Shown: positions 1-18,226 of the stretch, piece after piece
Layout: each line of letters starts with the position of its first letter
Position numbering within the stretch: the stretch's first letter is position 1
IMG/VR virus record: IMGVR_UViG_3300018012_000099
Direction: 5' to 3' (one strand)
DNA length: 64,000 bases
Origin: a virus
Taxonomy: Duplodnaviria; Caudoviricetes
Notes under the pieces: generated by a model
The model's database searches: none
Told to the model about the DNA's origin: nothing
Seen by the model: the letters and a program-made list of their open reading frames with translations, nothing else
Position numbers and translations under genes: made by a program

Positions 1-1815
1 TCGGTTAATGATTTATCCGCTGGTCGTCCAGAACTATTTTACGATCAAATTGCTACCAAGCCATTCGGTCTACAATTGATTGAAAAGATTAGGACTAAGG
101 GCGCTGCTAGCGTAGCAAATCTAGTCAAAAAGGGTCAAGTTCCACCTCCTCCAGCAGGTGGTGATGTAGGTGCTCCACCAGCAGGTGATATGGGAGCTCC
201 AGCAGGTGGTCCTCCAGAGGATACAGGTAAGTCTGGTGATCCAAAGCAAACTGCCATGGAACTAGCTGAAAAGGTTAGAGATTTATCTTCTGATCTTGTG
301 GAAGCTGTTCGTGCTCTAACTGGTGAACAAGCTGAAATGGGTGCAGGTGATGAAGGTTCTAGCGCCCCTCCAACCGCAGGTGGTGCTCCAGCTATGGCTG
401 ATGACAGCAAAATGTCCTCTGCCTCTTTTAGCGCCACTACTTTAAATACTCTCAGACGAGAACTAAATAGCGCGTTAACTCACGCTATGAAGGAAGCCGT
501 TGCAGAACTCAACGATCACAAACAAGAACTTGATATGATCGTCGGTTTGTTCGACAAGGGTGCCGTAGTTGATTCTAACAAGGACACCGTGAGCGCTCTC
601 GCCGACGATGCTTTTAATGAGACTAAGGCTGCTGTTGCTGATGGCTTTAAGCTAATGAATGCTTTCGTCAAGTACGCTCGTGGTACTGAAGCTATTGTCA
701 AGCGCGCTGAGATTGAGTCAGAATTACAAGCACTAGGTGCTGATGAAGGAGATGATATGAACGATGCCAAGAAGTCGAAGGACTCCTCTAAGGACAGTCA
801 CTCCGCTGACGCCGGTGACTTGATGGGTCTAATTAACGACACTAATGCAGATTTAGATGCTGTTCACAGCCTAATGAGCGATGACAACGATCATGTTGGT
901 GAAGAGCCACATGACGAAGCCATGGAACATCTAGAGGGCTTAGCCGCACTAGATGACGAAAATGGTGCCGTTGAAGTCAAGACTCCAGAACAAGCCGCCC
1001 AAGTAACTAAGGCTAACCCAGCAGCTAGTGTAGTGGTTCAAGCTTCTTTGGATACCCGAGAAGGTCGTTCCGCACTACGCGCCAAGTTAGCTGCCGATGC
1101 TCTTGGTAAGGAAGATGATGGAGAAGTTCAAGATGCTTCCAAGATTCAGTTCAGCGATATGCTAGATCAAGCTGACGGTCTTGCTGATGGTCAGACCCAC
1201 TTAGATGTCAAGCCGTCCGATAGCCTCGGATTGGTGGAAACTCTACCAGAAGAAAACAAGGCTATGTTGGAAGTCGCTAAGGCTCCACCAAAGGTTCGTA
1301 AGGAAGCCGAAGCTATTCAAAAGCTTGTTTCCGAAGGTTCCTTGGATCCAGCCGATCTAGATGCTTTAGTAGCAGAAGGTTTGGACAAGGATGCAGTGGC
1401 ATACTGGAAGAAGTATTACAGCCAAACTGATGGCGGTTCTGAATTCGCCAGTGAATTGGTTAAGGAGCATGTGAAGGCTCAACTCGAAGAAGAGTTCAAC
1501 AAGTTCCGTGTTAAGATTGCCAGAGCTTACGAGCTAGCCTATGATATGGCTGAACGTGGTATGTGCAACGGCGACAAGGGCTCTATCTCCCTACAAGTTG
1601 AGGAAATCATGAAGTTTGATGATCCAAGCTTCGAATCTCTTAAGAGAGTGGTTGCCAGAAACCCAGTAGTCGGTATGAAGAAGCAAGCTGGACGCCTTCC
1701 ACTAGTTGGCGTACGTGAGAACGACGAGCTATCCTCCACTGCCAGTGTTGAAGAACAAGGTACGGAATATGATAGACTATCCTCTATGTTCGGTAACAAA
1801 AAGGGCTCATTCTAA
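1..1815 (+). CDS. 5'-truncated putative head scaffold / prohead core protein (C-terminal part)
   Basis: Frame is open from base 1 (SVNDLSAGRPELF...), so the gene starts upstream of the window. Acidic, Ala-rich helical protein with a Pro/Gly linker and strongly biased codons (aag, gct, gac). Lies at the head of the operon leading to the MCP. Function inferred from composition and position. Confidence 0.55.
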   Translation, partial: SVNDLSAGRPELFYDQIATKPFGLQLIEKIRTKGAASVANLVKKGQVPPPPAGGDVGAPPAGDMGAPAGGPPEDTGKSGDPKQTAMELAEKVRDLSSDLVEAVRALTGEQAEMGAGDEGSSAPPTAGGAPAMADDSKMSSASFSATTLNTLRRELNSALTHAMKEAVAELNDHKQELDMIVGLFDKGAVVDSNKDTVSALADDAFNETKAAVADGFKLMNAFVKYARGTEAIVKRAEIESELQALGADEGDDMNDAKKSKDSSKDSHSADAGDLMGLINDTNADLDAVHSLMSDDNDHVGEEPHDEAMEHLEGLAALDDENGAVEVKTPEQAAQVTKANPAASVVVQASLDTREGRSALRAKLAADALGKEDDGEVQDASKIQFSDMLDQADGLADGQTHLDVKPSDSLGLVETLPEENKAMLEVAKAPPKVRKEAEAIQKLVSEGSLDPADLDALVAEGLDKDAVAYWKKYYSQTDGGSEFASELVKEHVKAQLEEEFNKFRVKIARAYELAYDMAERGMCNGDKGSISLQVEEIMKFDDPSFESLKRVVARNPVVGMKKQAGRLPLVGVRENDELSSTASVEEQGTEYDRLSSMFGNKKGSF

Positions 1816-1844
1816 AACTAGCTAACTAGGAAATAGGACTTACA

Positions 1845-2576
1845 ATGAAAAACAACAGTGTATCAGATTTCGTAGCTGCATCCATGGATGCAGCTCTGAA
1901 GAGCCAAGAATACAAGACCCTCTTTGGTACTCAGTATAAGTATGCTGACGACCAAAATGATGCCAAGAAAGAAACCATGTGTGCCAAACACGGTGAAATG
2001 GATTCTTGCATGGCTGATGACAATGACGCCAAGAAGAAGGACTCCTCTAAAGATTCTTCCAGTGCCTCGGATCAAAATGATGCTCGTAAGAGCAAGGATT
2101 CCTCATCTTCCTCCTCTTCTTCTAGCAAGGATTCTTCCTCTGCTGATGATCAGGCAGCTAAAGCTAAGAAGGATTCTAAGGATTCCAGTAGCGCAGATGA
2201 TCAAGATGCCAAGAAAAAGGATTCTAAGGACTCTAGCTCTGCTGATGATTCCGAGGAAAAGGTTTCCAGCGCTTTCGATGTGGCTATTGACAGCTTGCTA
2301 ACTGCTTCTGCTGCTTTAGATTCTGTTGGTCTCGGACGTGGTTCCGCCCTCAGCTTGAAGCTAGCTTCCTTGGTTGTTGAAGCCAAGAAGAAGGACAAGG
2401 ACTCTAAGAAGTCTTCTAAGGACTCCAAGAAGAGTGATTCTAACTCCGCTAAGGACAAGAAGCACAGCAAGGATTCCAAGGATTCTAAGAAGAGCGATTC
2501 CCATTCCGCTAAGGATAAGAAGAGCGATTCTAAGAAGTCTGACTCTAAGGACTCTAAGAAGTCTTCTAAGAAGTAA
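1845..2576 (+). CDS. Lys/Asp/Ser-rich low-complexity protein, putative internal head protein
   Basis: 243-aa ORF with AGGA RBS. Repeated (A)DD-x-x-DAKK and KDSKKS units; near-exclusive AAG Lys codons. Confidence 0.7.
   Translation: MKNNSVSDFVAASMDAALKSQEYKTLFGTQYKYADDQNDAKKETMCAKHGEMDSCMADDNDAKKKDSSKDSSSASDQNDARKSKDSSSSSSSSSKDSSSADDQAAKAKKDSKDSSSADDQDAKKKDSKDSSSADDSEEKVSSAFDVAIDSLLTASAALDSVGLGRGSALSLKLASLVVEAKKKDKDSKKSSKDSKKSDSNSAKDKKHSKDSKDSKKSDSHSAKDKKSDSKKSDSKDSKKSSKK
2030..2573 (+). repeat. Degenerate coding repeats (aaggattctaag / aaggactctaagaagtcttctaag)
   Basis: Multiple imperfect copies encoding KDSK, KDSS and KKSDS, interrupted by one non-repetitive helical segment. Confidence 0.8.
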
Positions 2577-2584
2577 GGGATCCC

Positions 2585-2800
2585 ATGTTCAAGAACAGCT
2601 TTGAGAACGAAATATTTCGTTCGATGGAGAAAACTCTAGTCAAAAATCAGACTGAGAACAACACGCACGGACTGAATAAGTTAGCTAAAGCTGTAGATTA
2701 TTTGAACGACGCTGCTGTTATCTTTGAGCGTGCAGGTATGACCCAAGAAGCCGATCTCATCACTGAGGTACTAGCTGGTTTAGCCAAGGATCTCAAATGA
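2585..2800 (+). CDS. Small helical protein, paralog of the N-terminus of 2797-3639
   Basis: FENEI...M and LxxAxxxFERAGMTQEAD align with FENEL...M and LHAALEILEDAGLSRHAD of the next gene. Confidence 0.75.
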   Translation: MFKNSFENEIFRSMEKTLVKNQTENNTHGLNKLAKAVDYLNDAAVIFERAGMTQEADLITEVLAGLAKDLK

Positions 2801-3639
2801 TTAAAAAGAGTGTCTTTGAAAATGAATTGATTGCAGGAATGCAGCAGGAACTGCGCAAACAAGCCTCAGGTGAAACGCCCGATCTTGTGAAGGCGGGAGA
2901 ATGTTTGCATGCTGCCTTGGAGATTTTAGAAGACGCAGGCTTATCACGCCATGCCGATAAGGTATTGGGCATTCTGCACAAGATTGCTGCTGATTCAACT
3001 AAGCGCATTCACAAAGTACCTACCCTTCAAGAATTAATGAGACATGGTTTAACCACCGAAGATATTCAATCTTTCGGGCGTGGTGACACTGGTGCCAAGA
3101 TGAAGATGAACTTGGTGCTTCGTAAAATGGACTTAGGAGAGCACGAAATTGCTCAGTTTATTGGTAAGCACAATGTGGTACCAGAACACGAACTAAAAAC
3201 CTATCAAAAATTCATGGGATGGATGCAAGATCCATTTAAAGTTGACGAAGGACCAGTTCAGCCGGGACAAACTGTGGAACTACAAAGTTTACCACAGTTA
3301 CCAGAAAATGAGAGTAATAAGCCAGTGGGTGAAGAAATTACTTTCAAGAGTTTGGCGAGTAAACCAGGACGTCCTGACAGGATTTCTGATGTTCATACTA
3401 AGAAATTAACGCCCGCTAAAATGGTGGAAAATCTTAAGCATCACGGCACTGAATTTAATATGCCAGATTTAGGTTGGGCTGACTTTGATCCAGAATTAGC
3501 TGATGCTCTGGATGCTCACAGTGCTGATGAAATGAATATTGAAGATATTTTTGATGCCGATATTGCTGATGACACTTTGGAAGTTTCCGACCTAGTTCCA
3601 CTAGAAGACTTCGAAGATGAAGTATCTTCTCCGAAGTAA
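2797..3639 (+). CDS. Putative internal head protein with acidic C-terminus
   Basis: 280-aa ORF translationally coupled by ATGA overlap. Shared N-terminal module, KQA/KIA motifs, Asp-rich tail. Confidence 0.65.
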   Translation: MIKKSVFENELIAGMQQELRKQASGETPDLVKAGECLHAALEILEDAGLSRHADKVLGILHKIAADSTKRIHKVPTLQELMRHGLTTEDIQSFGRGDTGAKMKMNLVLRKMDLGEHEIAQFIGKHNVVPEHELKTYQKFMGWMQDPFKVDEGPVQPGQTVELQSLPQLPENESNKPVGEEITFKSLASKPGRPDRISDVHTKKLTPAKMVENLKHHGTEFNMPDLGWADFDPELADALDAHSADEMNIEDIFDADIADDTLEVSDLVPLEDFEDEVSSPK

Positions 3640-3655
3640 TTCAAAGTGTGGATGA

Positions 3656-4495
3656 TTAAGTTAGTTCACAAAATTCTTTGTATTTATCGTATTTGCGTGG
3701 CAAATAAATAGTCGTGTCTTGATACAACCAGTCCAATACTTTTTTGACTTGCAGATTACCACCGACAGAAAGAACGGTAGTGATTTGATTAGTTTTGGGT
3801 TTGGACAGCGATATAGAACAGTGAATGTCTAATTTGTTTTCTAGTAAATCTTTGACTACCAAGCAGAATTGTCCTGTGGAAGTAATTTGCCAGCCCCAGT
3901 CTACCTGTCCTGTTTTCGTGGGTTTTCGAGCATATAAGCTCCCATCACCATCGAAGTAGCCCCTGATAAAATGTTGCTGCAATTTTGGGTCAACCAGCCA
4001 CTCTGGCCATGTTAGGATCAAACTCTTGACTGGAATACATCCCAATTTGGTGAGTTGTTGTGTTAGTAATTTACTGTTAATTCGTAGACGATAATATATT
4101 TCTGATACACTTGAATCGCTTACTATTTCAACAGAAGATAGTGGAGAAATCAAATCTCGAAATCTTTCCAATATCACTTTATCTTTCTCTTGTAACTTGA
4201 TGCTTATCTCGTAACTGTGGGCTTTCTTCACATAATTATTACCATCAGCATACATAAATCCCAATGTGTATGCTTTTTCTTCCGTGTCAATTATGTCAAA
4301 GAAATTTTCGTTGGGTATATATTTTCTTGTATATGACTGTGTAATTCTTCTTTGTATGCCGCATCTTTTCAAAGTGTTCATAATGAAAGTTTGAGAACAG
4401 CCGCATTTTTCAGCTACCTGATAAGTGTCCAGACCAGACGTATAAAGAGCAACTATAGTGGAGTCGAGTTCAGGAGATGATTTTATTTTCTGCAT
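3656..4495 (-). mobile_element. Free-standing two-motif LAGLIDADG homing endonuclease with N-terminal HTH
   Basis: AYTLGFMYADG and FIRGYFDGDG motifs plus WLY...LPRKY tail. AT-rich and opposite to operon orientation. Confidence 0.9.
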
Positions 4496-5405: not shown

Positions 5406-6605
5406 ATGACTTTTAAACATGTGAAATTTGAGGATTCTCCTGTAATGCGCTCTTTAGAGAGGGTGGCGCAGCAAAAGGGATTGGTTAAGGCAGATTCCCT
5501 TCAAAAAACAGCTGTTGCTAAGAAGATTGTTTCCAACTTAGTACCTACTGAAAGTTTACTTGACAACGTTCTTAGGTTATGTGTTGGTTTGCGAGAACGC
5601 GGATTCGATAAACAAGCTGAAGATTTGGAAACTCACCTGTCCAACTACAAGAAAGCTCAAACGTTATATGAAACTTCTCCTGAAAAGGGAGAAGATGTAA
5701 TTGAGTTTGCGCATCCAGAAGGTAGTCATAAACTCGAGGGAGTAGATGCTAAGGATGATGGTGCCGTCTTTGAAGATATTCTAGATCAAATGGCTAAGTC
5801 CATTGAAATGGTCAACAAGAAACCAACTGGCAAATTATCTGAAGCTCAAAAAGCTATTCAAGCTGTAAAGGTAACTCTAGGTGCCGCCCCTTTAGACGTT
5901 AATTCTCTATACGCCCAGGCACAAGATGCGTTAGAGAAGTTTCGTAGTACTATGGGTAGTATTGCTACCATGATGGGCGAAAATGCCAGCACTAATTCTG
6001 AGTATTTGGATGGCATCAAAAATGTGTTAGATAAGAAACAAGTCTACCAAATGACCTCCGGTCATTTATATGGTCGCACTCCGGTAGCCTCTATTCTGCT
6101 TAATGTCTATGACAATTTTAAAAATACTATGGAACCTAGCTATCTTAATCCATTTGGTTGGGGCGGACCTTCCGCTTGGAGCCCCAAACAAGAACAGGCT
6201 TGGCAAGAAGTACAGAAGTATTTTCCCGTGTTGAAAAAGTATGCCGATCGATTTCACACTGTGGTTTCTCAAATTAATGATATCGAGAGCGGCGTCGCCA
6301 CCAAAGCCGATCAAGAAGCGGTCTCACAATTCGATCCTGAAGGTCCCGCCAATATCCTAATTAGTAAACTACAGGGTTTGAAAGAGACCATCAATACAGA
6401 TATTTCTAAAATTCAACAAAAGAAACTACCCAACGCTAATGATTTGGTTGGCTGGTTAAATAAAGCTAGAGATAATTTCGTAACCAAATATATGCAAGAA
6501 TTAACTGCTTCGGATAAGGGAGAGCAAGTAACCGCTGATTATGGCGCTAAATACAATAATCTTAAATCCAAGATTGATGCCTTTGAACAAAGGTGGTTAG
6601 CATGA
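5406..6605 (+). CDS. Putative internal head / ejection protein, N-terminal paralog of 9890-11179
   Basis: ORF track start is 5394; ATG at 5406 is more likely. VAQQKGLV, FAHPE and VNKKPTGKL match IAEEKGLV, IAHPE and VNKNSPDGQL in 9890-11179. Confidence 0.6.
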   Translation: MTFKHVKFEDSPVMRSLERVAQQKGLVKADSLQKTAVAKKIVSNLVPTESLLDNVLRLCVGLRERGFDKQAEDLETHLSNYKKAQTLYETSPEKGEDVIEFAHPEGSHKLEGVDAKDDGAVFEDILDQMAKSIEMVNKKPTGKLSEAQKAIQAVKVTLGAAPLDVNSLYAQAQDALEKFRSTMGSIATMMGENASTNSEYLDGIKNVLDKKQVYQMTSGHLYGRTPVASILLNVYDNFKNTMEPSYLNPFGWGGPSAWSPKQEQAWQEVQKYFPVLKKYADRFHTVVSQINDIESGVATKADQEAVSQFDPEGPANILISKLQGLKETINTDISKIQQKKLPNANDLVGWLNKARDNFVTKYMQELTASDKGEQVTADYGAKYNNLKSKIDAFEQRWLA

Positions 6606-7687
6606 ACGGTAAGAAAGGTTTAGTCAACCTGATTAAAAAGGTAGCACAGGAATTAGAGGACGCTCCGGGAGTGACTCCTAAGAGAGCTCCTGCGCCACCA
6701 CCGCCCAATTTGCCGCCCCCTCCCCCTCCGCCCATTGGGACGCCGGCACCCGCCGATTCAGTTGTCCCTAGCGAGGCGAAGTCAGTCGAATCAATGGAGC
6801 CCCCCGCCAGCATCGTGAGGATGCAAACAGAATTAAAGAATTTGGCTAATACCATGACCAGCCAAGTGGATCTGAAACAATTGGCTGGACCTCAGGGTGC
6901 AGTTGGACCAGATCCCACCCGAGAACAAAAACAAGCCTATGGACGTATGTCTTTCGCTGATTTTATTACCCAGCACTACACCAGAGACTCCGATATTCCG
7001 GGTGTAGAGTTTGATTGGGATCCAACCAAAACTGACATGAAGGATAAAGATCCTTCCAAACCAATTCGTACTAATGTAGTAATGGATACCATGCAAAGAA
7101 TTGGTCAGCCGGAAAGCGAGTTTAAGATTGATGGTATTTGGGGTCCTAGAACTAATGCTTCTTTGCGTAACGCCTATGCTATGGCTTTTGGTATGCTGAA
7201 AATGGCTACAGATTTCAAATATCAACCTCGTGCATATAATCAACGTAATTTGCAAGCCTTGAAGGAATTGATTCCACATTCTGCCAACGAAATTTCTATT
7301 CAAGAGAAGATTGAGAGGGCTGGCGAGATTTCTAAACACTTACAGTTGATTAGGGCTCTATATCGAGAAATAGAAACAAATATTTTTAATAGGAAAGAGT
7401 TCCAGCCTTATATTGATGGTACGCAACCTTATGCTACTTATGCTCCAGGCAAGGCGTTGGATCCTCGTATGATTGATGAGCTCAACCAGAAGTTTATTAA
7501 CATGAAGGTAATGGGAACTGTTGATGGTAAAAATGTTGCTGTTCCTATTTTGGTAAGTGATTTGGTGAGTACGCAAGCTTTAACAGACTGGCAGAAGAAG
7601 AATATGCCAAGTATGTCTCTTGTAGATATTTTATCTCAGATTAAAAAACACTTAGATAGTACTGATCCTGCTAAAAGGACACAATAA
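6602..7687 (+). CDS. Putative internal/ejection protein with polyproline tract and peptidoglycan-binding-like motif
   Basis: ATG at 6602 overlaps the previous stop. KKVAQ near the N-terminus; APPPPPNLPPPPPPP; IDGIWGPRTNASL resembles the PG_binding_1 DGxxGPxT signature. Confidence 0.55.
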   Translation: MNGKKGLVNLIKKVAQELEDAPGVTPKRAPAPPPPNLPPPPPPPIGTPAPADSVVPSEAKSVESMEPPASIVRMQTELKNLANTMTSQVDLKQLAGPQGAVGPDPTREQKQAYGRMSFADFITQHYTRDSDIPGVEFDWDPTKTDMKDKDPSKPIRTNVVMDTMQRIGQPESEFKIDGIWGPRTNASLRNAYAMAFGMLKMATDFKYQPRAYNQRNLQALKELIPHSANEISIQEKIERAGEISKHLQLIRALYREIETNIFNRKEFQPYIDGTQPYATYAPGKALDPRMIDELNQKFINMKVMGTVDGKNVAVPILVSDLVSTQALTDWQKKNMPSMSLVDILSQIKKHLDSTDPAKRTQ

Positions 7688-8832
7688 TGACTTTTATTCT
7701 TGAAGATAAACAATTAGTAGATACGCTACTTAGATACGCTCAAGCCGCACAACCACAGAGATATATGGCTGTCAGCCCAGAGGATGTTAATGTCGTGCGT
7801 GGTCTAATTGGTGATCTAGAACAGAAGTTATCTGGAGAAGCTGTTGCTGTGGAACCGGAAATTACTACTGGCAGTGAACAAAATGCCGCGCTTTCCAGCT
7901 CCAATATGAAAAATCTGAGTACCTTAGTTAATTGGTTGGGTATGAATGGTATCAAAGTCAATGGTAAGAACGTAGTAGTCGGATGGGATGATTTGCCTAA
8001 TGATCCGTCTTATGTAGCATACCAATTTGAAGGAGATCAAACTTTTAGACCTTCTAATCAATTGGTTTTTAAGGTCAATAAGGAATTACTGGCTCAATAT
8101 CTCAACAGTTTACGAAGTCAATTATCCAAATTACCTAACCCAGTGATGCAAGCCCAAGTAGATGGGTTGGTTCGTGAAGCTAACGAACAATTAGGTACCG
8201 GTGTGGGTAAAGACCACCCAGAGGTGAAACAAACTCCCGATTCTAAGTCAAGTGGTAATGCTTCGCCAAATCAACCGGGACCAAGTGGTGCGCCACAAGC
8301 CGCTACTCTGCAACAACTGGCAGACATTTTACCATTACAGAGAGATGTATTGGATTTTGGAAGAGTCAGAGATTTTATTAATCACTATCGTAGTTTGGTG
8401 GGTGCAAGTACCGATCCAAATAGAGCACAACAAGCTAATGTAGCGATGGATCAGGCGGAACAGTTTATGCAAGCCGCTACTAAAAATACCTTGGGTCAAA
8501 GTATGACTACTTTTCATATGGACGGATTGTCAGCTAATGATTTGAAAGAATGGTCTACTCCTCCTGATCCGGGTCAAGCCGCTCGTACTCGTGGTAGTGC
8601 TAGGGCCTTAGCCGACTATCTAGAACAGGTAGTACGACAGGTGTATGTCATTGTTAAAGATTTATACAACTCGCACTATCAACAGCTCAGAGATCCAAGA
8701 TTATCTGATTTAAATCTGGCTATTCAACAACAAGTAGGTGGTCCCAGCATCCCATTTGGGAGCTCTTTAGCTAGTTCTAACATGGATGATATTCAAACGG
8801 CTCGTGCCAGATTGCCACAAGTAGGAGCCTAA
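7687..8832 (+). CDS. Putative internal head / ejection protein
   Basis: 381-aa coupled ORF; LLRYAQ at residues 13-18; Gln/Ala-rich helical. Confidence 0.55.
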   Translation: MTFILEDKQLVDTLLRYAQAAQPQRYMAVSPEDVNVVRGLIGDLEQKLSGEAVAVEPEITTGSEQNAALSSSNMKNLSTLVNWLGMNGIKVNGKNVVVGWDDLPNDPSYVAYQFEGDQTFRPSNQLVFKVNKELLAQYLNSLRSQLSKLPNPVMQAQVDGLVREANEQLGTGVGKDHPEVKQTPDSKSSGNASPNQPGPSGAPQAATLQQLADILPLQRDVLDFGRVRDFINHYRSLVGASTDPNRAQQANVAMDQAEQFMQAATKNTLGQSMTTFHMDGLSANDLKEWSTPPDPGQAARTRGSARALADYLEQVVRQVYVIVKDLYNSHYQQLRDPRLSDLNLAIQQQVGGPSIPFGSSLASSNMDDIQTARARLPQVGA

Positions 8833-9842
8833 TGACTAAAGGTAATGCCAGTTTTTATCTAGATACACAGCTCGTTGAAACAGTTTTAGGAGATGGTAAA
8901 TTCACCAAAACTGCGCAGGCTGGAATTTTGTCTGGATTGGGGGGCATGGTTAAAGAATATTTTGGTGCTCACTTCGATCCCAACGATAAGGAGGGTAGCG
9001 TCATTAATATGTTAGCTCCCGCCGCCATTTCCTCTCTCTTCCGTGCTTTTGGTTTTGGTAAGCTGGGGTTGCTATTTGGTGTAGCTGCTAGTGCTTTACA
9101 TTTGGATGTAGCGAGTATGATTCGTAGTATCTACGAGCGTCTCAAAGTATCTATTGGAAAGGGTCAGGTTACACCATCCGAAGTAGATGGCGCAGTTAAT
9201 GAAGCTATCCAAGAGCATACCACTTCCCCACAAGAAAATGACCAGTCCCCCGCTTTCGATAAGAGAAATTTCGATAAAGAAATAAGAGATGCTCGCATAG
9301 TGCGTTTAGCTTTAGAGCAATATGAAACACAATTGTTTCAATTAACCAAAGAAGGCGCTCCCGCCCGTGGTTGGTTTTCTAGTGCCAAGCGTTCTGCTAC
9401 TGGTAACTTGATTGGTCGTATTATCGGATGGGTTTTTAAACTTATTCTAATGTCGGCAGGTTTTATGGTAGCTGGAGACATCGCCAACAAACTATTAGGT
9501 CGTCCTAATGCTCTAGATCATACTTATCAGGCAGCCCCTTCCAGCGAAAATAGCATCACTTCACATCCCGCATCTTCTAATGTGTGGATAGAACACGTGA
9601 CCAATGATCCAAATTCCATCGAGAATATGTTGCTTGGTTTTACCAGGGATATTTATCCGAATTTAGTGGGTAAAGAAGATGCTATTAAAAAATCTCCTAC
9701 TTTTCAAGCCATTAAAGATCAAATTGTTTGGTATAACCATACGGCTGCGGGAGAGCCGGAGGTCTATATTCCAGCAATATATACAGATAAGAAATCTCTA
9801 GTGGATCGTTACATCAATGAGGTGACCAAAAATGCATCTTGA
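8832..9842 (+). CDS. Putative membrane-active ejection protein
   Basis: FTKTAQ near the N-terminus, then Gly/Ala-rich hydrophobic segments (LFRAFGFGKLGLLFGVAASAL; LIGRIIGWVFKLILMSAGFMVAG). Confidence 0.5.
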   Translation: MTKGNASFYLDTQLVETVLGDGKFTKTAQAGILSGLGGMVKEYFGAHFDPNDKEGSVINMLAPAAISSLFRAFGFGKLGLLFGVAASALHLDVASMIRSIYERLKVSIGKGQVTPSEVDGAVNEAIQEHTTSPQENDQSPAFDKRNFDKEIRDARIVRLALEQYETQLFQLTKEGAPARGWFSSAKRSATGNLIGRIIGWVFKLILMSAGFMVAGDIANKLLGRPNALDHTYQAAPSSENSITSHPASSNVWIEHVTNDPNSIENMLLGFTRDIYPNLVGKEDAIKKSPTFQAIKDQIVWYNHTAAGEPEVYIPAIYTDKKSLVDRYINEVTKNAS

Positions 9843-9889: not shown

Positions 9890-11179
9890 ATGAGACGTTC
9901 AGATATTTTTGAGACTTTTGTCAAGATAGCCGAAGAAAAGGGCTTGGTTTCCAAAGGTTCACCAGAATCTGTGAAGGAAACTTTAGAAAAGACTCATCGT
10001 GCCGATTCTTTAAGTATTGAGGATATTGCTCATTTGTATAACACCAAACCTGGTGCTCCCAAGGAGATGGAATATAAGAAAAATATCGTGGAAATTGCTC
10101 ATCCTGAGCCTCAAGTGCTGTTTAATTCCTATGATAAGCTCAATGCTTTAGTGGAAAATATTCAAGAGCGTCAGAACATTCTTCTACATATCGTCAACAA
10201 AAATTCTCCCGATGGACAGTTGACCAATCGTAAATATGCCAAACGCGACTTCATTCTTTCTTTGGTGAGAGTGGGCAACGATATGGATAATCGTGGTCAG
10301 TCTGATCTAGTGACTTTAGCTGATGCTTGTTTGTATCAAGCTACAGCTAAATCTCTAAAGAAAAACGCTCAATTACAGCTAATTATTCCACTTATCGCTG
10401 CCGCGATGGGAGGATTATATGCTAAACAGCATCTTCGTTTTCATAGCGATGGTTTTGAAAGAGATTATCAGAAGGCGGTGGCTGAATTAGACGATTTGCT
10501 CAATTCTAATAGTAATTTTGGGGTAGGATACGAATATAAACCAGAATTTATTACTCGAGTCAATGATATCAAGAATAAGTTAAACGATTTAAACACTTCC
10601 GTTCAATCCGTTTTACCGGAGTTAGATAAATTGGAAGCGCCACATACCGGATCTGAATTGGTCACCATTGCTAAACAACCAGACACCCATGAAGCCCTAC
10701 ATGCTCTGCAAGAGTTTAAGAAAGTAGTAGGAGAAGTATATCCATATTTACGTCAAGTAGTGGCTGACTTTAGCAATGAAGGCTATAAACAACGCCAAAT
10801 TCAAGATAAGGGATGGTTAACTGGCGTGGTAGATAGCACCGAGGTATTGCACGGTGGCAAAGGGTTAATTGCGGATGATTTTGATGATGTAGCTCATGCC
10901 TTACAAACTATCTTCTATGATGTGGCAAATATTCAGAAATCTTTATCTGGTGCTGATAATGCTGCTGCTCTAGCTCAACAACAATTACAATCCGCCCAAG
11001 CTAGTATGCCGGGTGAAGAAGCTTCTCAAGAACCAGAATCTGCCTCAGTACCTCTTCCAACTGCCCACGAAATGGGTGGTAGAACTTCCACAGTTCCTGC
11101 TAATCCGGTGGAACAAGATCAGGCTTCCCAGTTGGAAAAAGAACTCTCCGACTTCTCTTGGGAAGATTTAAAGGGCTAA
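9890..11179 (+). CDS. Putative internal head / ejection protein with hydrophobic segment
   Basis: ATG at 9890 after GGTGG. N-terminal domain is paralogous to 5406; LKKNAQ is directly followed by LQLIIPLIAAAMGGLYA. Confidence 0.55.
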   Translation: MRRSDIFETFVKIAEEKGLVSKGSPESVKETLEKTHRADSLSIEDIAHLYNTKPGAPKEMEYKKNIVEIAHPEPQVLFNSYDKLNALVENIQERQNILLHIVNKNSPDGQLTNRKYAKRDFILSLVRVGNDMDNRGQSDLVTLADACLYQATAKSLKKNAQLQLIIPLIAAAMGGLYAKQHLRFHSDGFERDYQKAVAELDDLLNSNSNFGVGYEYKPEFITRVNDIKNKLNDLNTSVQSVLPELDKLEAPHTGSELVTIAKQPDTHEALHALQEFKKVVGEVYPYLRQVVADFSNEGYKQRQIQDKGWLTGVVDSTEVLHGGKGLIADDFDDVAHALQTIFYDVANIQKSLSGADNAAALAQQQLQSAQASMPGEEASQEPESASVPLPTAHEMGGRTSTVPANPVEQDQASQLEKELSDFSWEDLKG

Positions 11180-11292: not shown

Positions 11293-12093
11293 ATGTCTCT
11301 AAAACTTTTACAACCAGGCATTCAGCCTTTGGGTCAATTTGATGGTCTCGACTCTGACGTATTAACGTTGAAGGGTGGAGAAGTTGTTTCTTTTGCTTCT
11401 ACCCAAACCTCTGGTCAACCAGGTGTTACTACTGCGAGTTTGGATAAAGCGGCTTATGATTCATTCGACGGATACGTCAATGGTGGCAGCAACGTCTTTT
11501 ATCGTCCAGTGGTAACTAGACTGTGGAATGGTACTAACCTTCCTGCTGACGGTTATACTGCTGTAACAGCTAGTGCTCCAGTGGGCGCTGCAACCGGTCG
11601 TCCTTTGATGCTCGCTGACGATGGTATTACTGGTTACGGTACTCTCTTCGGTACTGTAGTTGGTGGTACTGTTGGTCAAGTTTCCTACGGTCCAAACAGC
11701 GTTGTTGCTTCTGCTAACTTGCTCGGACCTCACACCGCTACCGGTTCTGGTAAAGTAACTTGCTGGGATAAGCCAGGTCTCTACGCCGTCTCCTTGGACG
11801 CTGTCGATACTACCGCTTCTACTGGTTTAGTTCCAACTAACGTTACAACTGCTACCGTCGGCGTTGCCCTTGGATTCACTTCCTTGGGACTCTTGACTCC
11901 AAGCGGTTCTGCTCAAGACATTACTCACGGTCTAGTGAGCGTGGGTCACTTCGTTGAGTTCAACACCAACGGTTCTTTGGTTACTACTCCTAACTTCCTA
12001 GTTGCCGCTCTCAATAGCCCATCTGGTAACGTTAGCTCGCTTGGTCCAAGATCCTTCGCCTTTGCTACTATTTACTTTGCTCCAAAGAGCTAA
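11293..12093 (+). CDS. Capsid decoration / minor capsid protein
   Basis: Directly upstream of the MCP, highly biased codons, Gly/Thr/Val-rich beta protein with the GSGKVTCW motif. Confidence 0.65.
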   Translation: MSLKLLQPGIQPLGQFDGLDSDVLTLKGGEVVSFASTQTSGQPGVTTASLDKAAYDSFDGYVNGGSNVFYRPVVTRLWNGTNLPADGYTAVTASAPVGAATGRPLMLADDGITGYGTLFGTVVGGTVGQVSYGPNSVVASANLLGPHTATGSGKVTCWDKPGLYAVSLDAVDTTASTGLVPTNVTTATVGVALGFTSLGLLTPSGSAQDITHGLVSVGHFVEFNTNGSLVTTPNFLVAALNSPSGNVSSLGPRSFAFATIYFAPKS

Positions 12094-12268: not shown

Positions 12269-13282
12269 ATGAATATGTTCAATAACCAAGGCGCAGTAAA
12301 CGCCTCATCCCTTAAGGATGCACTACAGACTCTCGTCAAGTATGCTGCTATTCTCGAAGAGAACACCCCAGCAAATCAAGGCTTGGCAGGTCAACCATCT
12401 TTGTCTGATGACAAGCGTGATGAGTTGATTTCTCGTGCCATTATGACCCAAGACGGTAAAATTGCTCTAGCTCAGGCTATGGCAAACCCAATCCGTAGAA
12501 ACCTAGATTATCATGGTATCGCTCGTCGTGCCTTGGTGGTCGATCCATTGCCACAAGGTGCTATGCCAACTTACGATAGAGATATCGATGTTGCCGCTGT
12601 AGTTATCTCCAGCAACGGTACTGGTCCAGAATCCAGAGTATTCGGTGACAGAGTAGTTGTCCCTGAATTCGAAGTTTACGCAAATCCAACCGTTAGAATC
12701 GCCGAAGTCAAGCGTCGTAGATTCAACGTTATCGATAGAGCAGTCCAGAAGGCTCGTCAAGAAATCATGGCTCAAGAAGACGCAAACGTTTTCGCAGCTT
12801 TGGATGCAGCCGCTTCTGTGGAAAATACTCTAACCGACATCGCTGATGCCGGTCTTCTCAAGAGAGACTTGGTTGAAATCAAGCAACAAGTTGATCGTTG
12901 GGACTTAGTTACTACCAAGTACTTCATGAACATCAATGAGTTCACTGACATCCTCAAGTGGGGTTCTGGTGGTGGACAAGGCGTTGGTGGTGGAGACTTC
13001 GATCCAGTAACCATGCGTGAAGTTCTACAAACTGGTCTTTACGCTCATATTTGGGGTACTGACATTATGGTAAGCAAGATTGTTCCTCCTGGAACGATAT
13101 ACGGCGTAGCAGATCCTGAATTCGTCGGAGTCATGCCAATTCGTCAAGACATTGAAGTCTTGCCAGCAGACGAACCAAAGCAATTGAAGCTTGGATGGGT
13201 CGTCAGTGAAATAATTGGTATAGCGATAGTTAACCCACGTAGTGTTGCGGCCGGTAGGAAATCGGTTGTCATCGGGGCTTGA
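12269..13282 (+). CDS. Major capsid protein (HK97-like fold)
   Basis: 337 aa, GGAG RBS, strongest codon bias in the window, flanked by terminators. Segment order is MCP-like (RRALVVDPLPQG, AQEDANVF, YAHIWGTDIMVS, VSEIIGIAIVNP). Confidence 0.85.
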   Translation: MNMFNNQGAVNASSLKDALQTLVKYAAILEENTPANQGLAGQPSLSDDKRDELISRAIMTQDGKIALAQAMANPIRRNLDYHGIARRALVVDPLPQGAMPTYDRDIDVAAVVISSNGTGPESRVFGDRVVVPEFEVYANPTVRIAEVKRRRFNVIDRAVQKARQEIMAQEDANVFAALDAAASVENTLTDIADAGLLKRDLVEIKQQVDRWDLVTTKYFMNINEFTDILKWGSGGGQGVGGGDFDPVTMREVLQTGLYAHIWGTDIMVSKIVPPGTIYGVADPEFVGVMPIRQDIEVLPADEPKQLKLGWVVSEIIGIAIVNPRSVAAGRKSVVIGA

Positions 13283-13396: not shown

Positions 13397-14236
13397 ATGA
13401 TTTCTGTAGAATTATATGAAGAATGTAAAAAATTATATTTAGGCGGTCATTCAATATCTAAAATTTGTTTGGAAAAACATTTGGATAGGCACAATTTGGG
13501 GCGTCGTTTTAAAAAAGATGGAATAAATGTTGGATTAGGTTGCTCAAATGCTCGAACATATAATCTAAATGAGCATTATTTTGACCATATTGATTCTGAA
13601 GAAAAAGCATATATGTTAGGATTCATATATGCGGATGGTAATAATCTATTTCAAACAAATAGAATTGCGATACAACTATCGATTGTAGATAAGGAGATAC
13701 TTCAAAAATTTTCTCAAATTATGTTCGGACAAGAGAATTTAAAATATCGCAAGAATAAAAATAATAAAGGAATTGAATTTGAATATGTGTCTTTAAGTAT
13801 GTATAGCAAACATATGAGCCAGCATCTTGCTACCTTGGGCGTGGTAGAAGCCAAATCCCATAAAATTGTCTTTCCTGACTGGCTTGATAAGTCTTTGTAT
13901 CGTCATTTTATCCGAGGACTAATCGATGGGGATGGTTGGATTTATCTGCCCAATGATAATCGAGATAGTCCTAATGTTGGACTAATTTGCACTCGCAAGT
14001 TAAATGATTTTCTAAAAGACTATTTTGAGAAAGAATTGAGGCTCAAATCTTATTTAGTCAAGGCATATAAACAGGATTTCGAAGTTATGTGTGAAATTCG
14101 TGTTAAGAACTATCACCAATGCAAAATATTTTTGGACTGGCTGTACAAGAGCGCCACTATCTCTTTGCAGAGGAAGTATGAATTATATCAGGAATTTCTC
14201 AACCGATACGATAATTTGAGAGATCAAAACAAGTAA
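13397..14236 (+). mobile_element. Free-standing LAGLIDADG homing endonuclease, paralog of 3656-4495
   Basis: AYMLGFIYADG and FIRGLIDGDG motifs; same length (279 aa) and layout as 3656-4495. Confidence 0.9.
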
Positions 14237-14253
14237 TTATTTTACATCTACCT

Positions 14254-14880
14254 ATGAGCCTCGATCGTTTATTAAAACAAGCCGAATACTTCGAAAAATT
14301 GTCGCAACAAGACCCATATGATAGTAATTTGCGTAATTTGGTAGTGAATACTCGCCCCGATGGACGCAATTTTTCATTTCGTGAAGTAGTGGATGTAGTG
14401 TTACAAGATCTAACATCTTTGGATCGAAGTGAAAAGGATCCGGAGGTTTCCCAAGCTAGTCATGGATTATTGAATATTCTTAATAGCCTGGAAGTTCCCG
14501 ATCCCAATGCTATGTTAAATGCAGCGAAGGCGGCTAATAATGTTATTCAACAGAGATATGCTAATGATGCTGAAAAAACCAAAATAGCCAAATATCTAGT
14601 ATCTCTGACGCAAATCATCATCAATAAGTATTTTACCCAAAAATCCACAGATACGTCTGGTGGTGATGTGACCACCGAAGGAACTTATGTGTTTCTGCAA
14701 AGAATATTTAATACTCTTCATAGCGGTCAATCTTTAAATGAGAATGATGCCAATGAGTGGAAAAATTCTCGTACCTTTTATGTGCGACGACTTAATGGGT
14801 TAAATTCTCTACCCAATTTGACACCATCTCAGCAAAACGAGAAACAACTAATCGAATTTGTGATCAGCAAATTGCACTAA
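14254..14880 (+). CDS. Hypothetical helical protein, possible internal head protein
   Basis: 208-aa ORF starting SLDRLLKQAEYFEK (KxA motif). Confidence 0.55.
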   Translation: MSLDRLLKQAEYFEKLSQQDPYDSNLRNLVVNTRPDGRNFSFREVVDVVLQDLTSLDRSEKDPEVSQASHGLLNILNSLEVPDPNAMLNAAKAANNVIQQRYANDAEKTKIAKYLVSLTQIIINKYFTQKSTDTSGGDVTTEGTYVFLQRIFNTLHSGQSLNENDANEWKNSRTFYVRRLNGLNSLPNLTPSQQNEKQLIEFVISKLH

Positions 14881-14955
14881 ATATTCTTATTGTCTCTTGT
14901 GTGAAAATTTTCCATAGAAAAATGAGTGATATTCCTGTATTTCTTTGGAGATTAT

Positions 14956-16176
14956 ATGCCAGATAATGAAACATTTTTTCAAAAACTGACCGATATTAAT
15001 TTTACGGTGAAAAATCTTTCACCTATCAGGAAAATACATATCTTCAATTACCCTATTTTCCCTGGTCAGACCCGAGATCTATTAGCCATTCCAGAGATTT
15101 CAGAAGCAGATATCCGACACTCTTTAATTAAAGGAGAGCTGGCTAATTTTATTCGCATGGGAGTGATCGATATTGTATCTAGCAGTATAGATTTGGTACA
15201 AGAAGATGCTAGTCAAGAAAATTTTTTAGTTAATGCGGGTTTGGTTGTTAATTCTCTGTTAGAGGCGCCCTTTACACAAACACAAACCGTATATGTTAAT
15301 AAGGCAGGTAGTGATACTTTAGGGACAGGTTCCTTGGTTCTACCATTTCAAACTATTAGTCATGCTCTTTCAGTCATTACAGACGCTTCACAAACTAAAG
15401 TATACAATATTACTGTAGGTGCCGGAGAATATACTGAAGATCTTCTCATTCGCCCTTGGGTTGGTATAACTGGGGTGCCCGGAACCAGCGCTTTTGAAGG
15501 ATTAACTACTGTTACTGTTAATTCTATTAGTTTTTCTCCATTATGGGCTGGTCCTACTTATAATGTGTCTTGGATGAGTCACATTACTTTTAATAATCAG
15601 CCTATATTTAATTTTAGCACTTTAAGCAGTATAAATGGACAATTAACATTTTTCGATTGCTTATTTAATTCTGGTGCCACTTATATTGGTGCTGGTAGTG
15701 GTAATGTTAATAATATTAATTGGGACGATTGCTTATCTTATGCCTTAGTTACCGTTAAAGACTGTCAATTTTTCTTTATGACTGGCGGATCACTAATTCA
15801 GATTACTGGCGGAGGTAATGCTCTTGATATTACTTCCACTGTGGAGGCAACTACTTGGTTAGCCTTACAGTGTGCTGTGAATGGCAATGTTAACTTACAT
15901 ACTCCTTTAATTAATCCAGTAGTGACCGCTCAATTGGTGGGGTGCGCGGTAGTAGGTACTCTAACTCTTAATGGCAATGTTACTTACACTTCCACGGCTA
16001 CTGGAATACCATCCAGTATTACATTGTTAAATTCTGCACCGCCACCCGTATTATCCACACAGGCCAATGCTATAGGATATGTCCCTACATCCAATGCCAA
16101 TTGGAATAATAGCGCCCCCACCACCGTTACTGCTGCTTTAGACCGTATTGCCGCTAAAATAGGTCCTATTTCATAA
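14956..16176 (+). CDS. Putative virion appendage with shared N-terminal anchor and beta-helix-like body
   Basis: ATG at 14956 after GGAG. N-terminal domain is paralogous to 18230-18943; VYVNKAGSDTLGTGSLVLPFQTISHA resembles the DUF1565-type cap of pectin-lyase-like beta-helices. Confidence 0.6.
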   Translation: MPDNETFFQKLTDINFTVKNLSPIRKIHIFNYPIFPGQTRDLLAIPEISEADIRHSLIKGELANFIRMGVIDIVSSSIDLVQEDASQENFLVNAGLVVNSLLEAPFTQTQTVYVNKAGSDTLGTGSLVLPFQTISHALSVITDASQTKVYNITVGAGEYTEDLLIRPWVGITGVPGTSAFEGLTTVTVNSISFSPLWAGPTYNVSWMSHITFNNQPIFNFSTLSSINGQLTFFDCLFNSGATYIGAGSGNVNNINWDDCLSYALVTVKDCQFFFMTGGSLIQITGGGNALDITSTVEATTWLALQCAVNGNVNLHTPLINPVVTAQLVGCAVVGTLTLNGNVTYTSTATGIPSSITLLNSAPPPVLSTQANAIGYVPTSNANWNNSAPTTVTAALDRIAAKIGPIS

Positions 16177-16178
16177 TT

Positions 16179-17471
16179 TTAACGTAATACCGCTTGTCGA
16201 AGCATTTCTAACAGATATTCTTTATCATTATGCTCGGGATGTTCCAAAATTTCCTGATAGCAAACATCTAAAAGTGCCTTCATTCTGGGACCGGGGGTCA
16301 TTCCCGCTTTTAGAAGATCGTCTCCGTTAATTTGCATAGCCTTACGAGAATGTACCGTGGTATCTTGGTATTTTGCCAGCAGCGTTTCCGCAGGCACGTC
16401 CATGGCTCTGGTTAACTTTATAAATTCATTATAGGTATGCTCCCATGGGTCGGGGGCTTCATTCTTGAACTTTGCTATAAACTTCCTGTAGGGAAACGCT
16501 CCGTCTTCTAGGTGCTGAAAATCTAACAACCTTTGCAGTAGGAAAGCAACTCTCTTGATGGATTTGTTTGAGAATTTAAGATCAATAAGCTCCTGCTCCA
16601 CTAGTAAGTGTGGTAACTTGTTGTAGAGTAAGGCTAAACGGGTTTCTAACTCACCCGCACATTGATTCAGTGACGGAATTAGGGGAAGTTGTCGTCCCAT
16701 CAAGCATGGACAGACAATATCCAAGGCTCCGGACATGTGTAGGTACATAACTCCAGCATGAGGGCGTGAAGTCATAAGAGTTTTGCTTAGTTCGTCATTG
16801 ATACGTTCTTTGGAAACCTTCTTCAAGGTTTCCAAAGAATCTATCATTCCCTGAAAGGTTTCATCATGGATAGCGAAGCCAAAACGTGCAGCGAAACGAG
16901 CTGCTCGCATAATACGTAAACCGTCTTCTTGGAATCGTTTTTGTGGAACCCCCACAGCACGAATGAGACCAATCTTAATGTCTTCGTATCCGTGAAAAGG
17001 ATCCACGCCCACATTGCTTACTGGATCGAAGGCTATGGCGTTGATGGTAAAATCTCGACGAGCCAAATCTTCCGTGATGTTTGTAACAAATTGGACCGAT
17101 GCCGGACGACGTCCATCTCGATATTCACCTTCTACTCGAAAAGTGGTGACTTCGAAATGATTTTCCACGCCTTCGCCCATGCATACCGTCACTGTGCCAT
17201 GTTGCAGTCCCGTAGGAATGGTTCTTTCAAACAGTTGGATGACTTGTTCAGGCGAAGCGTTAGTAGTAATGTCCCAATCTTTGGGCTGTAGTCCAAGATG
17301 TAGGTCTCGTACGCACCCTCCTACGATGTAGGCTTGAAAACCTGGATTCTGTAGAATGTTACAAATTTCGATAGCTTTTGGATGAATTAGGGGCTGAAAA
17401 AGACGATTATGTGACATATGCGGTAACATAAAGTTTAAAATTTGGGTGTCAAGCCCTTTCTTCAGCCGCAC
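16179..17471 (-). CDS. cca: Class II tRNA nucleotidyltransferase (CCA-adding enzyme)
   Basis: GGCVRD, DWDI, RRDFTINA and EDGLRIMRAARF motifs; the RVEGEYRDGRRP loop and TGLQHGTV are CCA-type, and the pcnB GRRF signature is absent. The true start may be slightly internal. Confidence 0.85.
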   Translation of the reverse strand: MRLKKGLDTQILNFMLPHMSHNRLFQPLIHPKAIEICNILQNPGFQAYIVGGCVRDLHLGLQPKDWDITTNASPEQVIQLFERTIPTGLQHGTVTVCMGEGVENHFEVTTFRVEGEYRDGRRPASVQFVTNITEDLARRDFTINAIAFDPVSNVGVDPFHGYEDIKIGLIRAVGVPQKRFQEDGLRIMRAARFAARFGFAIHDETFQGMIDSLETLKKVSKERINDELSKTLMTSRPHAGVMYLHMSGALDIVCPCLMGRQLPLIPSLNQCAGELETRLALLYNKLPHLLVEQELIDLKFSNKSIKRVAFLLQRLLDFQHLEDGAFPYRKFIAKFKNEAPDPWEHTYNEFIKLTRAMDVPAETLLAKYQDTTVHSRKAMQINGDDLLKAGMTPGPRMKALLDVCYQEILEHPEHNDKEYLLEMLRQAVLR

Positions 17472-17476
17472 TTAGA

Positions 17477-17491
17477 TAATATTTCGATATA
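17477..17491. promoter_or_regulatory. TAATA-N6-TATA site between divergent genes
   Basis: taata tttcga tata; the ATA-N6-TAT core reads on both strands. Confidence 0.45.
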
Positions 17492-17518
17492 TTATTGTAA
17501 TCTCAATAGGAATTCTAC

Positions 17519-18226
17519 ATGAAGCTTGACCAATTAACAGATCTGTACAGTCTAATTTCTAGAGGTGCCGAAAAAATACGGTTCAGAAAAACATCTATGA
17601 GATTAAGGCAAGCTGAATTTAACTCTGTTACTTTTAATCAGGGATTCACTAAAGTTGCCTTTGATACTCGTAGAATAGATCAAGCAAATCAATATAATCC
17701 TCGTCGTGGACTACAGTACTATAATCGTAGTGAGGCTTTTATCACCGAAGCTATGTCACAAAAAATTAAGAATTTTTCCAAACTCCGTCACGTGCTTAAT
17801 TCTATCAAAGATATTTATGGCCAGGAACCAGAGTGGCAAGATAGCAACGCTCGTGTATTATTAACTACTTTAGATAATGGCTTGCGCACTATTATTAAGG
17901 ATGGCGATTTTACTGAAGCACAACCTGGATTAGGCAGTTTTAATTATATTGAAGAGTTATTACATGTTAGATATCGTCTTGGTTTTGATGATTTGGTTAG
18001 TATGAGTGAGCTTGATTTACGACAAGTTATCTTAGCTAAAGATGAAGAGTTAACTAGGAAGGATGTGTCTCAATCTTTAGAGATCACTAAGAAAGATGTA
18101 ATCACTAAAGATTACGATTCTTTGATCGAAAAATTGTTTGATGGATGTAAGGCAAGTGCAGATAACCCCGATGTAGAGAGGACTATTAGCATAACTATTA
18201 GAGACCGATTCCATAAAGAAGGATAA
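17519..18226 (+). CDS. Hypothetical protein
   Basis: 235-aa ORF with AGGA RBS; contains FTKVAF (KxA-type motif). Confidence 0.6.
   Translation: MKLDQLTDLYSLISRGAEKIRFRKTSMRLRQAEFNSVTFNQGFTKVAFDTRRIDQANQYNPRRGLQYYNRSEAFITEAMSQKIKNFSKLRHVLNSIKDIYGQEPEWQDSNARVLLTTLDNGLRTIIKDGDFTEAQPGLGSFNYIEELLHVRYRLGFDDLVSMSELDLRQVILAKDEELTRKDVSQSLEITKKDVITKDYDSLIEKLFDGCKASADNPDVERTISITIRDRFHKEG

Follow-up and report, generated by a model that had tools for sequence, protein, structure and literature searches.

A conserved Phi-x-Lys-x-Ala motif in the head proteins of a phage G-like megaphage: a candidate prohead-protease cleavage signal

The DNA considered here (the window) is a stretch of 64,000 nucleotides from a tailed phage (Duplodnaviria; Caudoviricetes; IMG/VR record IMGVR_UViG_3300018012_000099). 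Positions 1-18226 make up the head-morphogenesis block of this phage, which is huge, uncultured and phage G-like. Short sequences of the form Phi-x-Lys-x-Ala, in which Phi is L, F, I, V or M and the residue after Ala is usually Gln, Ser or Ala, recur near the N-termini of the proteins encoded in this block. The initial annotation, made from the sequence alone, proposed that these sequences are the cleavage sites of a prohead protease with a specificity other than that of T4 gp21 and phiKZ gp175, which cut after Glu. Every peptide that it listed was found. In what follows Phi, Lys and Ala are called P5, P3 and P1, the next residue is P1', and in the one-letter sequences a hyphen after the fifth residue marks the candidate bond. 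The open reading frames (ORFs) concerned and their sites are:

1-1815, plus strand: C-terminal 604 amino acids of a protease-scaffold polyprotein of ~1,240 amino acids; aligns to residues ~620-1242 of homologue P0001 (L085:10567-14295) and to 116 further homologues
121-135 (residues 41-45), plus strand: scaffold site LVKKG-Q, with Gly at P1 here; strict motif in this column in 77/118 polyproteins, e.g., KLIKKA-Q
664-678 (residues 222-226), plus strand: scaffold site FVKYA-R; strict motif in 48/118
694-708 (residues 232-236), plus strand: scaffold site IVKRA-E; strict motif in 79/118
1294-1308 (residues 432-436), plus strand: scaffold site VRKEA-E; present in 63/118 polyproteins
1675-1689, plus strand: scaffold site MKKQA-G, resembling a herpesvirus M-site, 41 residues before the C-terminus
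1845-2576, plus strand: Lys/Ser/Asp-rich head protein with the variant site QYKYA-D (1932-1946)
2585-2800, plus strand: 71-amino-acid paralogue of the leader domain of the 2797 product; site LNKLA-K (2672-2686), kept in 13/18 orthologues
2797-3639, plus strand: head protein with three tandem leader sites, LRKQA-S (2851-2865), LVKAG-E (2884-2898) and LHKIA-A (2974-2988)
5406-6605, plus strand: head protein with four leader sites, LERVA-Q (5454-5468), LQKTA-V (5499-5513), FDKQA-E (5604-5618) and NYKKA-Q (5643-5657)
6602-7687, plus strand: head protein with leader site IKKVA-Q (6632-6646), followed by a Pro-rich linker
7687-8832, plus strand: head protein with a weak Arg variant, LLRYA-Q (7726-7740); full motif in 5/11 orthologues, P1 Gly or Ala
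8832-9842, plus strand: head protein with leader site FTKTA-Q (8901-8915) and mid-protein site LTKEG-A (9342-9356)
9890-11179, plus strand: head protein with FVKIA-E (9917-9931) and LKKNA-Q (10355-10369), kept in 50/50 and 49/52 orthologues, respectively (43% mean identity)
12269-13282, plus strand: major capsid protein (MCP; phrog_2522, E 1e-78) with candidate propeptide site LVKYA-A (12332-12346, residues 22-26)
17519-18226, plus strand: head or neck-region protein with FTKVA-F (17645-17659), kept in 50/50 orthologues
11440-11454, plus strand: LDKAA-Y in the product of ORF 11293, which directly precedes the MCP ORF, not an instance of the motif; Lys in 30/61 orthologues, full motif in 6/61
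14254-14880, plus strand: protein of no assigned function with an unverified LLKQA-E (14269-14283); one orthologue found, without the Lys

This block belongs to a large clade. Relatives of the MCP are encoded on at least 317 IMG/VR contigs, and the protease domain described below has matches in 1,448 representative proteins. Orthologues were sampled from 80 of these contigs, with lengths of up to 481 kb. Among the sampled relatives the MCP is 90-98% identical and the internal head proteins just 21-60%, so that a comparison of their conservation has power. The nearest cultured relative is Bacillus phage G, whose gp27 is 53.7% identical to the window MCP over residues 45-327. A megablast search with 5 kb of the window against phage records gave zero matches, and no head-block protein other than the MCP matched a PHROG or Pfam family.

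How unusual is the recurrence of the motif? The pattern [LIVFM]-x-K-x-A occurs within residues 1-50 of nine of the 14 head-block proteins, compared to three of the 37 remaining proteins of the window. Shuffling either the whole protein or its first 60 residues gives an expectation of 1.0-1.2 +/- 1.0, and none of 5000 shuffles exceeded 6. Among 400 patterns of the type Phi-x-B-x-Z, the K/A combination ranks first with its nine proteins, and the runner-up reaches five. Two pairs of carriers are paralogous, namely 2585/2797 (BLASTP E 6e-7) and, weakly, 5406/9890 (E 0.007). When paralogues are merged and unconserved hits removed, at least six of 12 independent families are still positive (binomial P ~2e-4). 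A genome-wide replicate was provided by a complete relative (G001; 480,838 bp, 653 ORFs called), in which 9/15 proteins of the head block are positive against 51/638 elsewhere (Fisher p 8e-7). In a sliding window along this genome the head block is the unique maximum, with nine positives against four or fewer elsewhere, and the positives outside the block (~8%) match the shuffle rate. Outside the block, the G001 ORFs that start at 1385, 31642, 122230, 178105 and 240132 are candidates for packaged cargo. The enrichment of the motif in head over other genes, which the initial annotation had put forward as a check, is thus borne out, and the alternative that it had named, a frequency equal to the background of Lys/Ala-rich proteins, is contradicted by the composition-preserving shuffles.

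The sites are also conserved. Of the orthologues of ORFs 2797, 5406, 6602, 8832, 9890, the MCP and 17519, 80-100% retain the full motif at the N-proximal sites. Lys at P3 and Ala or Gly at P1 are kept in 85-100%, with variable neighbours, in families that are 30-45% identical. In the fast-evolving families (8832, 6602 and 5406), P5, P3 and P1 carry 2.4-4.3 bits (3.6-4.3 at P3 and P1), against ~1-2.4 at P4, P2 and the flanks. In ORF 6602, for example, IKKVA is found in 30/34 orthologues at 30% mean identity, with 3.6-3.7 bits at the three motif positions and 1-2 in the flanks. All three motif residues are kept in 25/32, 28/32 and 28/32 orthologues of ORF 5406 (31% mean identity), in which Y-K-x-A is near-invariant; the sites LRKQA, LVKAG and LHKIA of ORF 2797 are kept in 9/10, 8/11 and 8/10 (mean identity 46%). 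The full motif of the FTKTA site in ORF 8832 is present in 40/43 orthologues, and the LTKEG site is present in 26/47; in an alignment of the 55-amino-acid leader, K26 is one of two invariant columns, A28 is kept in at least 90%, and insertions and deletions fall directly after the site. The region upstream of the site in ORF 17519 is variable, and an invariant FDTRR block begins directly after the Ala. In the 1845 protein the variant Y-K-[YF]-A is seen in 5/5 aligned orthologues, its P5 not being hydrophobic. When the families are pooled, Lys occupies P3 in 95% and Ala occupies P1 in 94% (Gly in 5%), and P1' is mostly Gln, Ala, Phe or Ser. Motifs that lie far from the N-terminus (5406:276, 6602:198 and 8832:331) are not conserved.

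Leaders often contain two to four tandem sites (four within 84 residues in ORF 5406, three in ORF 2797), and at least six unrelated families, in addition to the MCP, bear the motif near the N-terminus. Most of the peptides first listed are conserved in this way; the site in ORF 7687 is weak, and that in ORF 14254 lacks its Lys in the single orthologue. Sites that were missing from that list are LNKLA in ORF 2585-2800, LERVA and FDKQA in ORF 5406, LVKAG in ORF 2797 and LDKAA in ORF 11293, the last of which, kept in so few orthologues, looks like chance. The product of ORF 11293 has no similarity to the phage G decoration protein gp26. The motif is common to the MCP, the scaffold, the protease and the internal head proteins, and as a class it is absent from tail and replication genes, the distribution by which a prohead motif is recognized. 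These comparisons support the view that it is a genuine, selected short linear signal specific to the head module.

One product in this series stands out in composition. The 243-amino-acid product of the 1845-2576 ORF, directly after the polyprotein ORF, is 20.6% Lys and contains long repeats of Ser, Asp and Lys. It shows weak similarity to the acidic central part of the scaffold (E 1.7e-5) and may be a polyelectrolyte internal head protein.

In the MCP, the LVKYA site is kept in 56/57 orthologues. It occupies residues 22-26, one residue before the position originally given (23-27). The MCPs of phage G and Tunturi_5 start ~15 residues past LVKYA, ~40 later than the window MCP, and lack the whole N-terminal leader. 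In the more distant phage PaBG, the sequence MSAYA-S had been picked by eye as a counterpart of the MCP site; a MAFFT alignment does not support this. Residues 9-15 of the window MCP read AVNASSL (12293-12313), and a Phi-N-A-(S/G/Y)-(S/D) sequence is found in PaBG, AD1, Lu11, Motura and Rctr197k, at 28% identity or less.

The motif is at its densest in the polyprotein. The ORF at 1-1815 aligns to the C-terminal half of this polyprotein, and the "scaffold-like protein" of the initial annotation is therefore its scaffold part. Among 133 full-length homologues there are 9.6 motifs per protein, compared to 3.0 after shuffling, and 132 of the 133 lie above expectation. The protease's own N-terminus has FRKFA-T in 96/118 polyproteins, in the same register as LVKTA-A of phage G gp19. 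In 85/117 proteins a motif follows within ~170 residues of the protease domain, frequently at a distance of exactly 21 residues. The last 75 residues contain the strict motif in 95/134 polyproteins, most often 36-42 residues from the end, with a conserved x-P-Q-V-G after it and then a conserved C-terminal tail. In 977 scaffold instances Pro is excluded at P4, P2 and P1', and Gln and Ser are enriched at P1', a P1' preference that is shared by the leaders of the unrelated proteins. The sequence LKKIA-P, beside the protease fold, was discarded as an instance of the motif, having its conserved Lys at P4 and a Pro after the Ala.

Where is the protease? The initial annotation proposed to look for it upstream. 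Alignment to relatives does put a protease domain upstream, ~1.9 kb before the start of the window, but it is not a separate gene, being fused to the scaffold. A search with phage G gp19, which has been called a head maturation protease (PMC12484599), matched three complete relatives at 37% identity, and each match opens an uninterrupted ORF of 1,207-1,253 amino acids; 133 of the 150 homologues listed exceed 1,000 amino acids. The domain matches phrog_18299, "head maturation protease" (E 1.7e-13), and phrog_2774 (E 7.6e-16). A search of the three complete relatives with Pfam S77 gave no match, which is weak evidence of absence since the control genomes were not matched either; the domain itself hit no Pfam family at E < 0.01 and gave nothing meaningful in a sequence search of the PDB.

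Folded from a single sequence, the domain reached a predicted local distance difference test (pLDDT) score of 37; an alignment of 65 sequences was needed for an AlphaFold model with a pLDDT of 84.7. The top structural matches of this model in VIA-align are the varicella-zoster virus protease (Z 11.1), pseudorabies virus (PrV) pUL26N (Z 10.6) and T4 gp21 (5jbl; Z 10.1 over 132 residues). Matches to herpesvirus proteases and T4 gp21 span Z 8-11.1, with root-mean-square deviations of 2.4-3.0 over 112-132 residues, compared to Z ~7 for unrelated MCE-domain entries, and the Foldseek E-values are only ~0.02. The N-terminal ~270 amino acids of the polyprotein are thus modelled as an assemblin/T4 gp21 fold (clan SH: S21, S77, S78). 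Two residues, H132 (in C-x-D-H) and S183 (in V-S-M-G), do not vary among the 65 sequences; they are common to phage G gp19 and are putative equivalents of the known catalytic residues. A complex prediction of protease residues 37-270 with the leader of ORF 8832 scored 0.00, which counts neither for nor against an interaction.

In the relative L085, the terminase gene is followed by an ORF of ~625 amino acids, further ORFs and the protease-scaffold ORF, and the internal head proteins and MCP lie ~10 kb past the end of the latter. The ~625-amino-acid ORF, a putative portal gene by its position, matched no family.

The protease domain has two further peculiarities. One is an invariant Cys cluster (C193, C196 and C207) followed by a frequent His (P0001 residues 193-209), located between the putative catalytic Ser and the last strands; it is also found in gp19 and looks like a zinc ribbon. 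The other is an intein with a LAGLIDADG homing endonuclease inside the domain of some homologues, such as P0016 (residues ~90-490; Intein_splicing E 2e-13, LAGLIDADG_3 E 7.5e-13). About 20 further homologues among those listed show two matched stretches, as P0016 does.

In phage G the motif is found in gp9, gp13, gp14 (the portal; Ala at residue 20) and gp20, in each case no more than 20 residues from the N-terminus, and also in gp19 (Ala at residue 45). No report of cleavage sites was found in the part of the phage G literature covered by our search, and our literature searches found no published prohead-protease specificity of the K-x-A type. Phage G gp5, gp8, gp9, gp12, gp13, gp17, gp20 and gp38 share a basic N-terminus of the type M-K-R-L-I-K-K-(A/S); in gp13, gp20 and gp38 it ends in K-x-A within the first 13 residues, and these may be very short leaders. 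In Rctr197k (L114, 4541-18745), misc_feature is the sole annotation of several head genes, the protease-scaffold ORF among them, and the protease N-terminus has the Arg/Lys variants LVRIA and LKRVA-S.

What does the motif do? Because it is common to the MCP, the scaffold, the protease and unrelated leaders, and because the layout of the polyprotein resembles that of herpesvirus pUL26, we read Phi-x-Lys-x-Ala as a cleavage code. Our favoured explanation, which we hold with moderate confidence, is that the phage's own prohead protease recognizes the motif and cleaves there, probably after the Ala. Most plausibly, a single machine reads all instances of the motif. About eight internal head proteins would assemble into the procapsid together with the polyprotein and the MCP. 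The protease would then release itself via its own N-terminal site and the sites past the protease domain, and the scaffold would be cut at several conserved sites, one of them ~40 residues from its C-terminus. The internal proteins would lose N-terminal leaders of ~14-84 residues, often with two to four tandem sites, and the MCP would lose its first 26 residues. Conserved positions upstream of the sites probably have a second role in packaging these proteins into the procapsid, comparable to that of the capsid-targeting sequence of T4.

Such a system would have most in common with the herpesviruses. Herpesvirus assemblins cut after Ala (YLQA-T and VQA-S), and pUL26 has an R-site after the protease and an M-site 25-37 residues from the C-terminus, cleavage at the PrV M-site removing 37 residues (PMC4498786). 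Like assemblin and its protease-scaffold precursors (pUL26 of herpes simplex virus and PrV, pUL80a of human cytomegalovirus; MEROPS S21), a group that gives the best structural match (Z 10.6-11.1), the phage protein has an N-terminal protease fused to a long scaffold. The candidate cuts likewise follow an Ala, with a small or polar residue next, and candidate sites lie after the protease and ~40 residues from the scaffold C-terminus. On the other hand, the phage motif needs a Lys two residues before the Ala and a hydrophobic P5, rather than V, L or I at P3; there are ~10 sites per polyprotein in addition to the N-terminal leaders on many internal proteins; and the domain has its inserted Cys cluster and no detectable sequence similarity to the herpesvirus enzymes.

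T4 gp21 (S77) has the same fold, and in T4, too, an MCP propeptide, the scaffold and N-terminally tagged internal proteins share one short motif, the leader doubling as a packaging signal (processing in the present phage being our proposal). Unlike in T4, Lys and Ala are fixed and there is no Glu at P1, Pfam S77 misses the domain, and a single gene encodes protease and scaffold. The heads of the giant phages phiKZ (gp175) and SPN3US (gp245) contain many internal proteins with N-terminal propeptides, to which the candidate leaders correspond, each with several tandem sites, but their motif is (S/A/G)-x-Glu, cut after the Glu, and they belong to a different jumbo-phage group. Experimentally cleaved SPN3US propeptides (A-x-E) have several tandem sites each (PMC10052503). 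The phiKZ-type prohead proteases have been placed with T4 gp21 in the Pfam S77 group, and Iyer et al. placed phage G-type phages in group 3, without obvious S77 homologues (PMC7824862). The phage sites described in the literature consulted here, those of T4, SPN3US and phage P1 (between E120 and S121), end in Glu. Phage G itself is alike in that LVKTA-A of gp19 is in register with the N-terminal site of the clade and in the similarity of its MCP (53.7% identical) and protease (34-37%); it is unlike in having the protease as a stand-alone protein of 300 amino acids and an MCP that has no N-terminal leader.

Several points weigh against the cleavage reading. Conservation of the leaders of ORFs 8832, 9890 and the MCP extends well past the motif and points to a role in binding. 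The motif is not generally avoided in the bodies of head proteins (207 observed, 158 expected); by protein the picture is mixed and not independent, the MCP and 5406 being depleted and 8832 and 17519 enriched. AlphaFold places the N-terminal site of the protease in a helix (H26-42), and the strongest exclusion of Pro in the scaffold instances (x0.04) is at the residue following the Lys. The K-x-A of the MCP (residues 24-26) is not conserved in PaBG, AD1, Lu11, Motura and Rctr197k in a cross-clade MAFFT alignment. VNA-SS at MCP residues 10-14, which resembles the herpesvirus M-site VNA-S, is a second candidate MCP cleavage site, and it is the more widely conserved of the two in distant relatives. 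In phage G, enrichment of the motif over 40 kb is not significant (5/23 versus 3/37, p = 0.13). Finally, we infer cleavage in this lineage, and a scissile bond after the Ala, entirely from such comparisons. Of the specificity originally proposed, what stands is a conserved, head-specific signal on the MCP, the scaffold, the protease and at least six unrelated internal proteins, together with an enzyme predicted to have the gp21 fold; the cut and its bond are at the level of proposals, and a packaging or binding role is compatible with the same data.

The motif could instead be a capsid-targeting or docking peptide that binds the scaffold or MCP and is left uncut, with processing taking place elsewhere or not at all. 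Helical or extended, such a peptide would act much as the T4 capsid-targeting sequence or the cargo-loading peptides of encapsulins do. We consider this unlikely, and still a real rival, since the i/i+2/i+4 spacing of the motif fits an amphipathic helix and the protease's own site is modelled as helical. The conserved surroundings of the leader sites in 8832, 9890 and the MCP, and bodies that do not avoid the motif, are equally what docking would lead one to expect. However, the MCP, scaffold and protease carry the motif and have no need of being targeted to themselves, and ~10 copies per polyprotein, at assemblin-type cut positions after the protease and ~40 residues from the C-terminus, are hard to reconcile with docking. 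Two to four tandem copies per leader are typical of cleaved propeptides (PMC10052503), and insertions and deletions cluster directly after the Ala.

Could the signal be cut after the Lys? Phi would then be P3, Lys P1 and Ala P2', which is the T4-type geometry (L/I-x-E, cut after the Glu) with Lys for Glu. All characterized proteases of the assemblin fold do recognize a P3 that is hydrophobic or small, with a specific P1 two positions later (L/I-x-E in T4, A-x-E in SPN3US and V/L-x-A in herpesviruses), and the near absence of Pro after the Lys is as expected of P1'. HK97 gp5 is cut after a Lys. Nevertheless, we think this register improbable: Ala is as invariant as Lys (94-95% pooled), which would be unusual at P2', and it is after the Ala that Gln, Ser and Ala are preferred, Pro is depleted and conserved mature blocks begin (FDTRR in ORF 17519); moreover, the herpesvirus enzymes of the same fold cut between Ala and Ser. 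That the recurrence is a functionless product of common descent of the leaders or of composition is very improbable, for although two carrier pairs are paralogous, the proteins are fairly rich in Lys and Ala and the genome background equals the shuffle rate, nine carriers are seen where shuffles give about one, at least half of the families remain positive after merging of paralogues, and Lys and Ala are isolated peaks of conservation in families that have diverged to 30% identity.

Other genes are interspersed with those of the head. Three likely homing-endonuclease genes are dispersed in the block, at 3656-4495 (minus strand), 13397-14236 (plus strand) and 18940-19581 (plus strand). Two of these ORFs resemble each other, and that at 13397 matches phrog_4645 (E 5.5e-50); the third is of the GIY-YIG type (phrog_314, E 3e-36). 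Their best matches in relatives are ~30-35% identical, and they may be mobile rather than strictly orthologous copies. Between the MCP and ORF 17519, the minus strand (16179-17471) encodes a full-length tRNA nucleotidyltransferase of the CCA-adding type (phrog_2244, E 1.3e-64).

Few phages have had the specificity of their prohead protease measured, and nearly all of these cut after Glu. Favouring cleavage after the Ala as we do, we tentatively raise a broader possibility, that Phi-x-K-x-A is a clade-wide "address and cut" code of the phage G-type megaphages. If this is true, the Ala-P1 specificity, the protease-scaffold fusion and the R/M-like layout would mean that the herpesvirus mode of capsid maturation was already present in tailed phages, the Glu-specific enzymes of T4 and phiKZ being one derived branch. 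The maturation of phage and herpesvirus capsids would be tied more closely together, by a fused scaffold and a small P1 residue in addition to the shared fold. Phage G, the only megaphage in culture, offers a direct test of the idea, since the motif is present in its protease and in several proteins of its head module. The packaged, and possibly injected, head proteome would be readable from sequence alone: such a code would pick out the head-internal cargo among the many unknown proteins of a very abundant environmental clade of huge phages, and it would predict exact mature N-termini for model building by cryo-electron microscopy.

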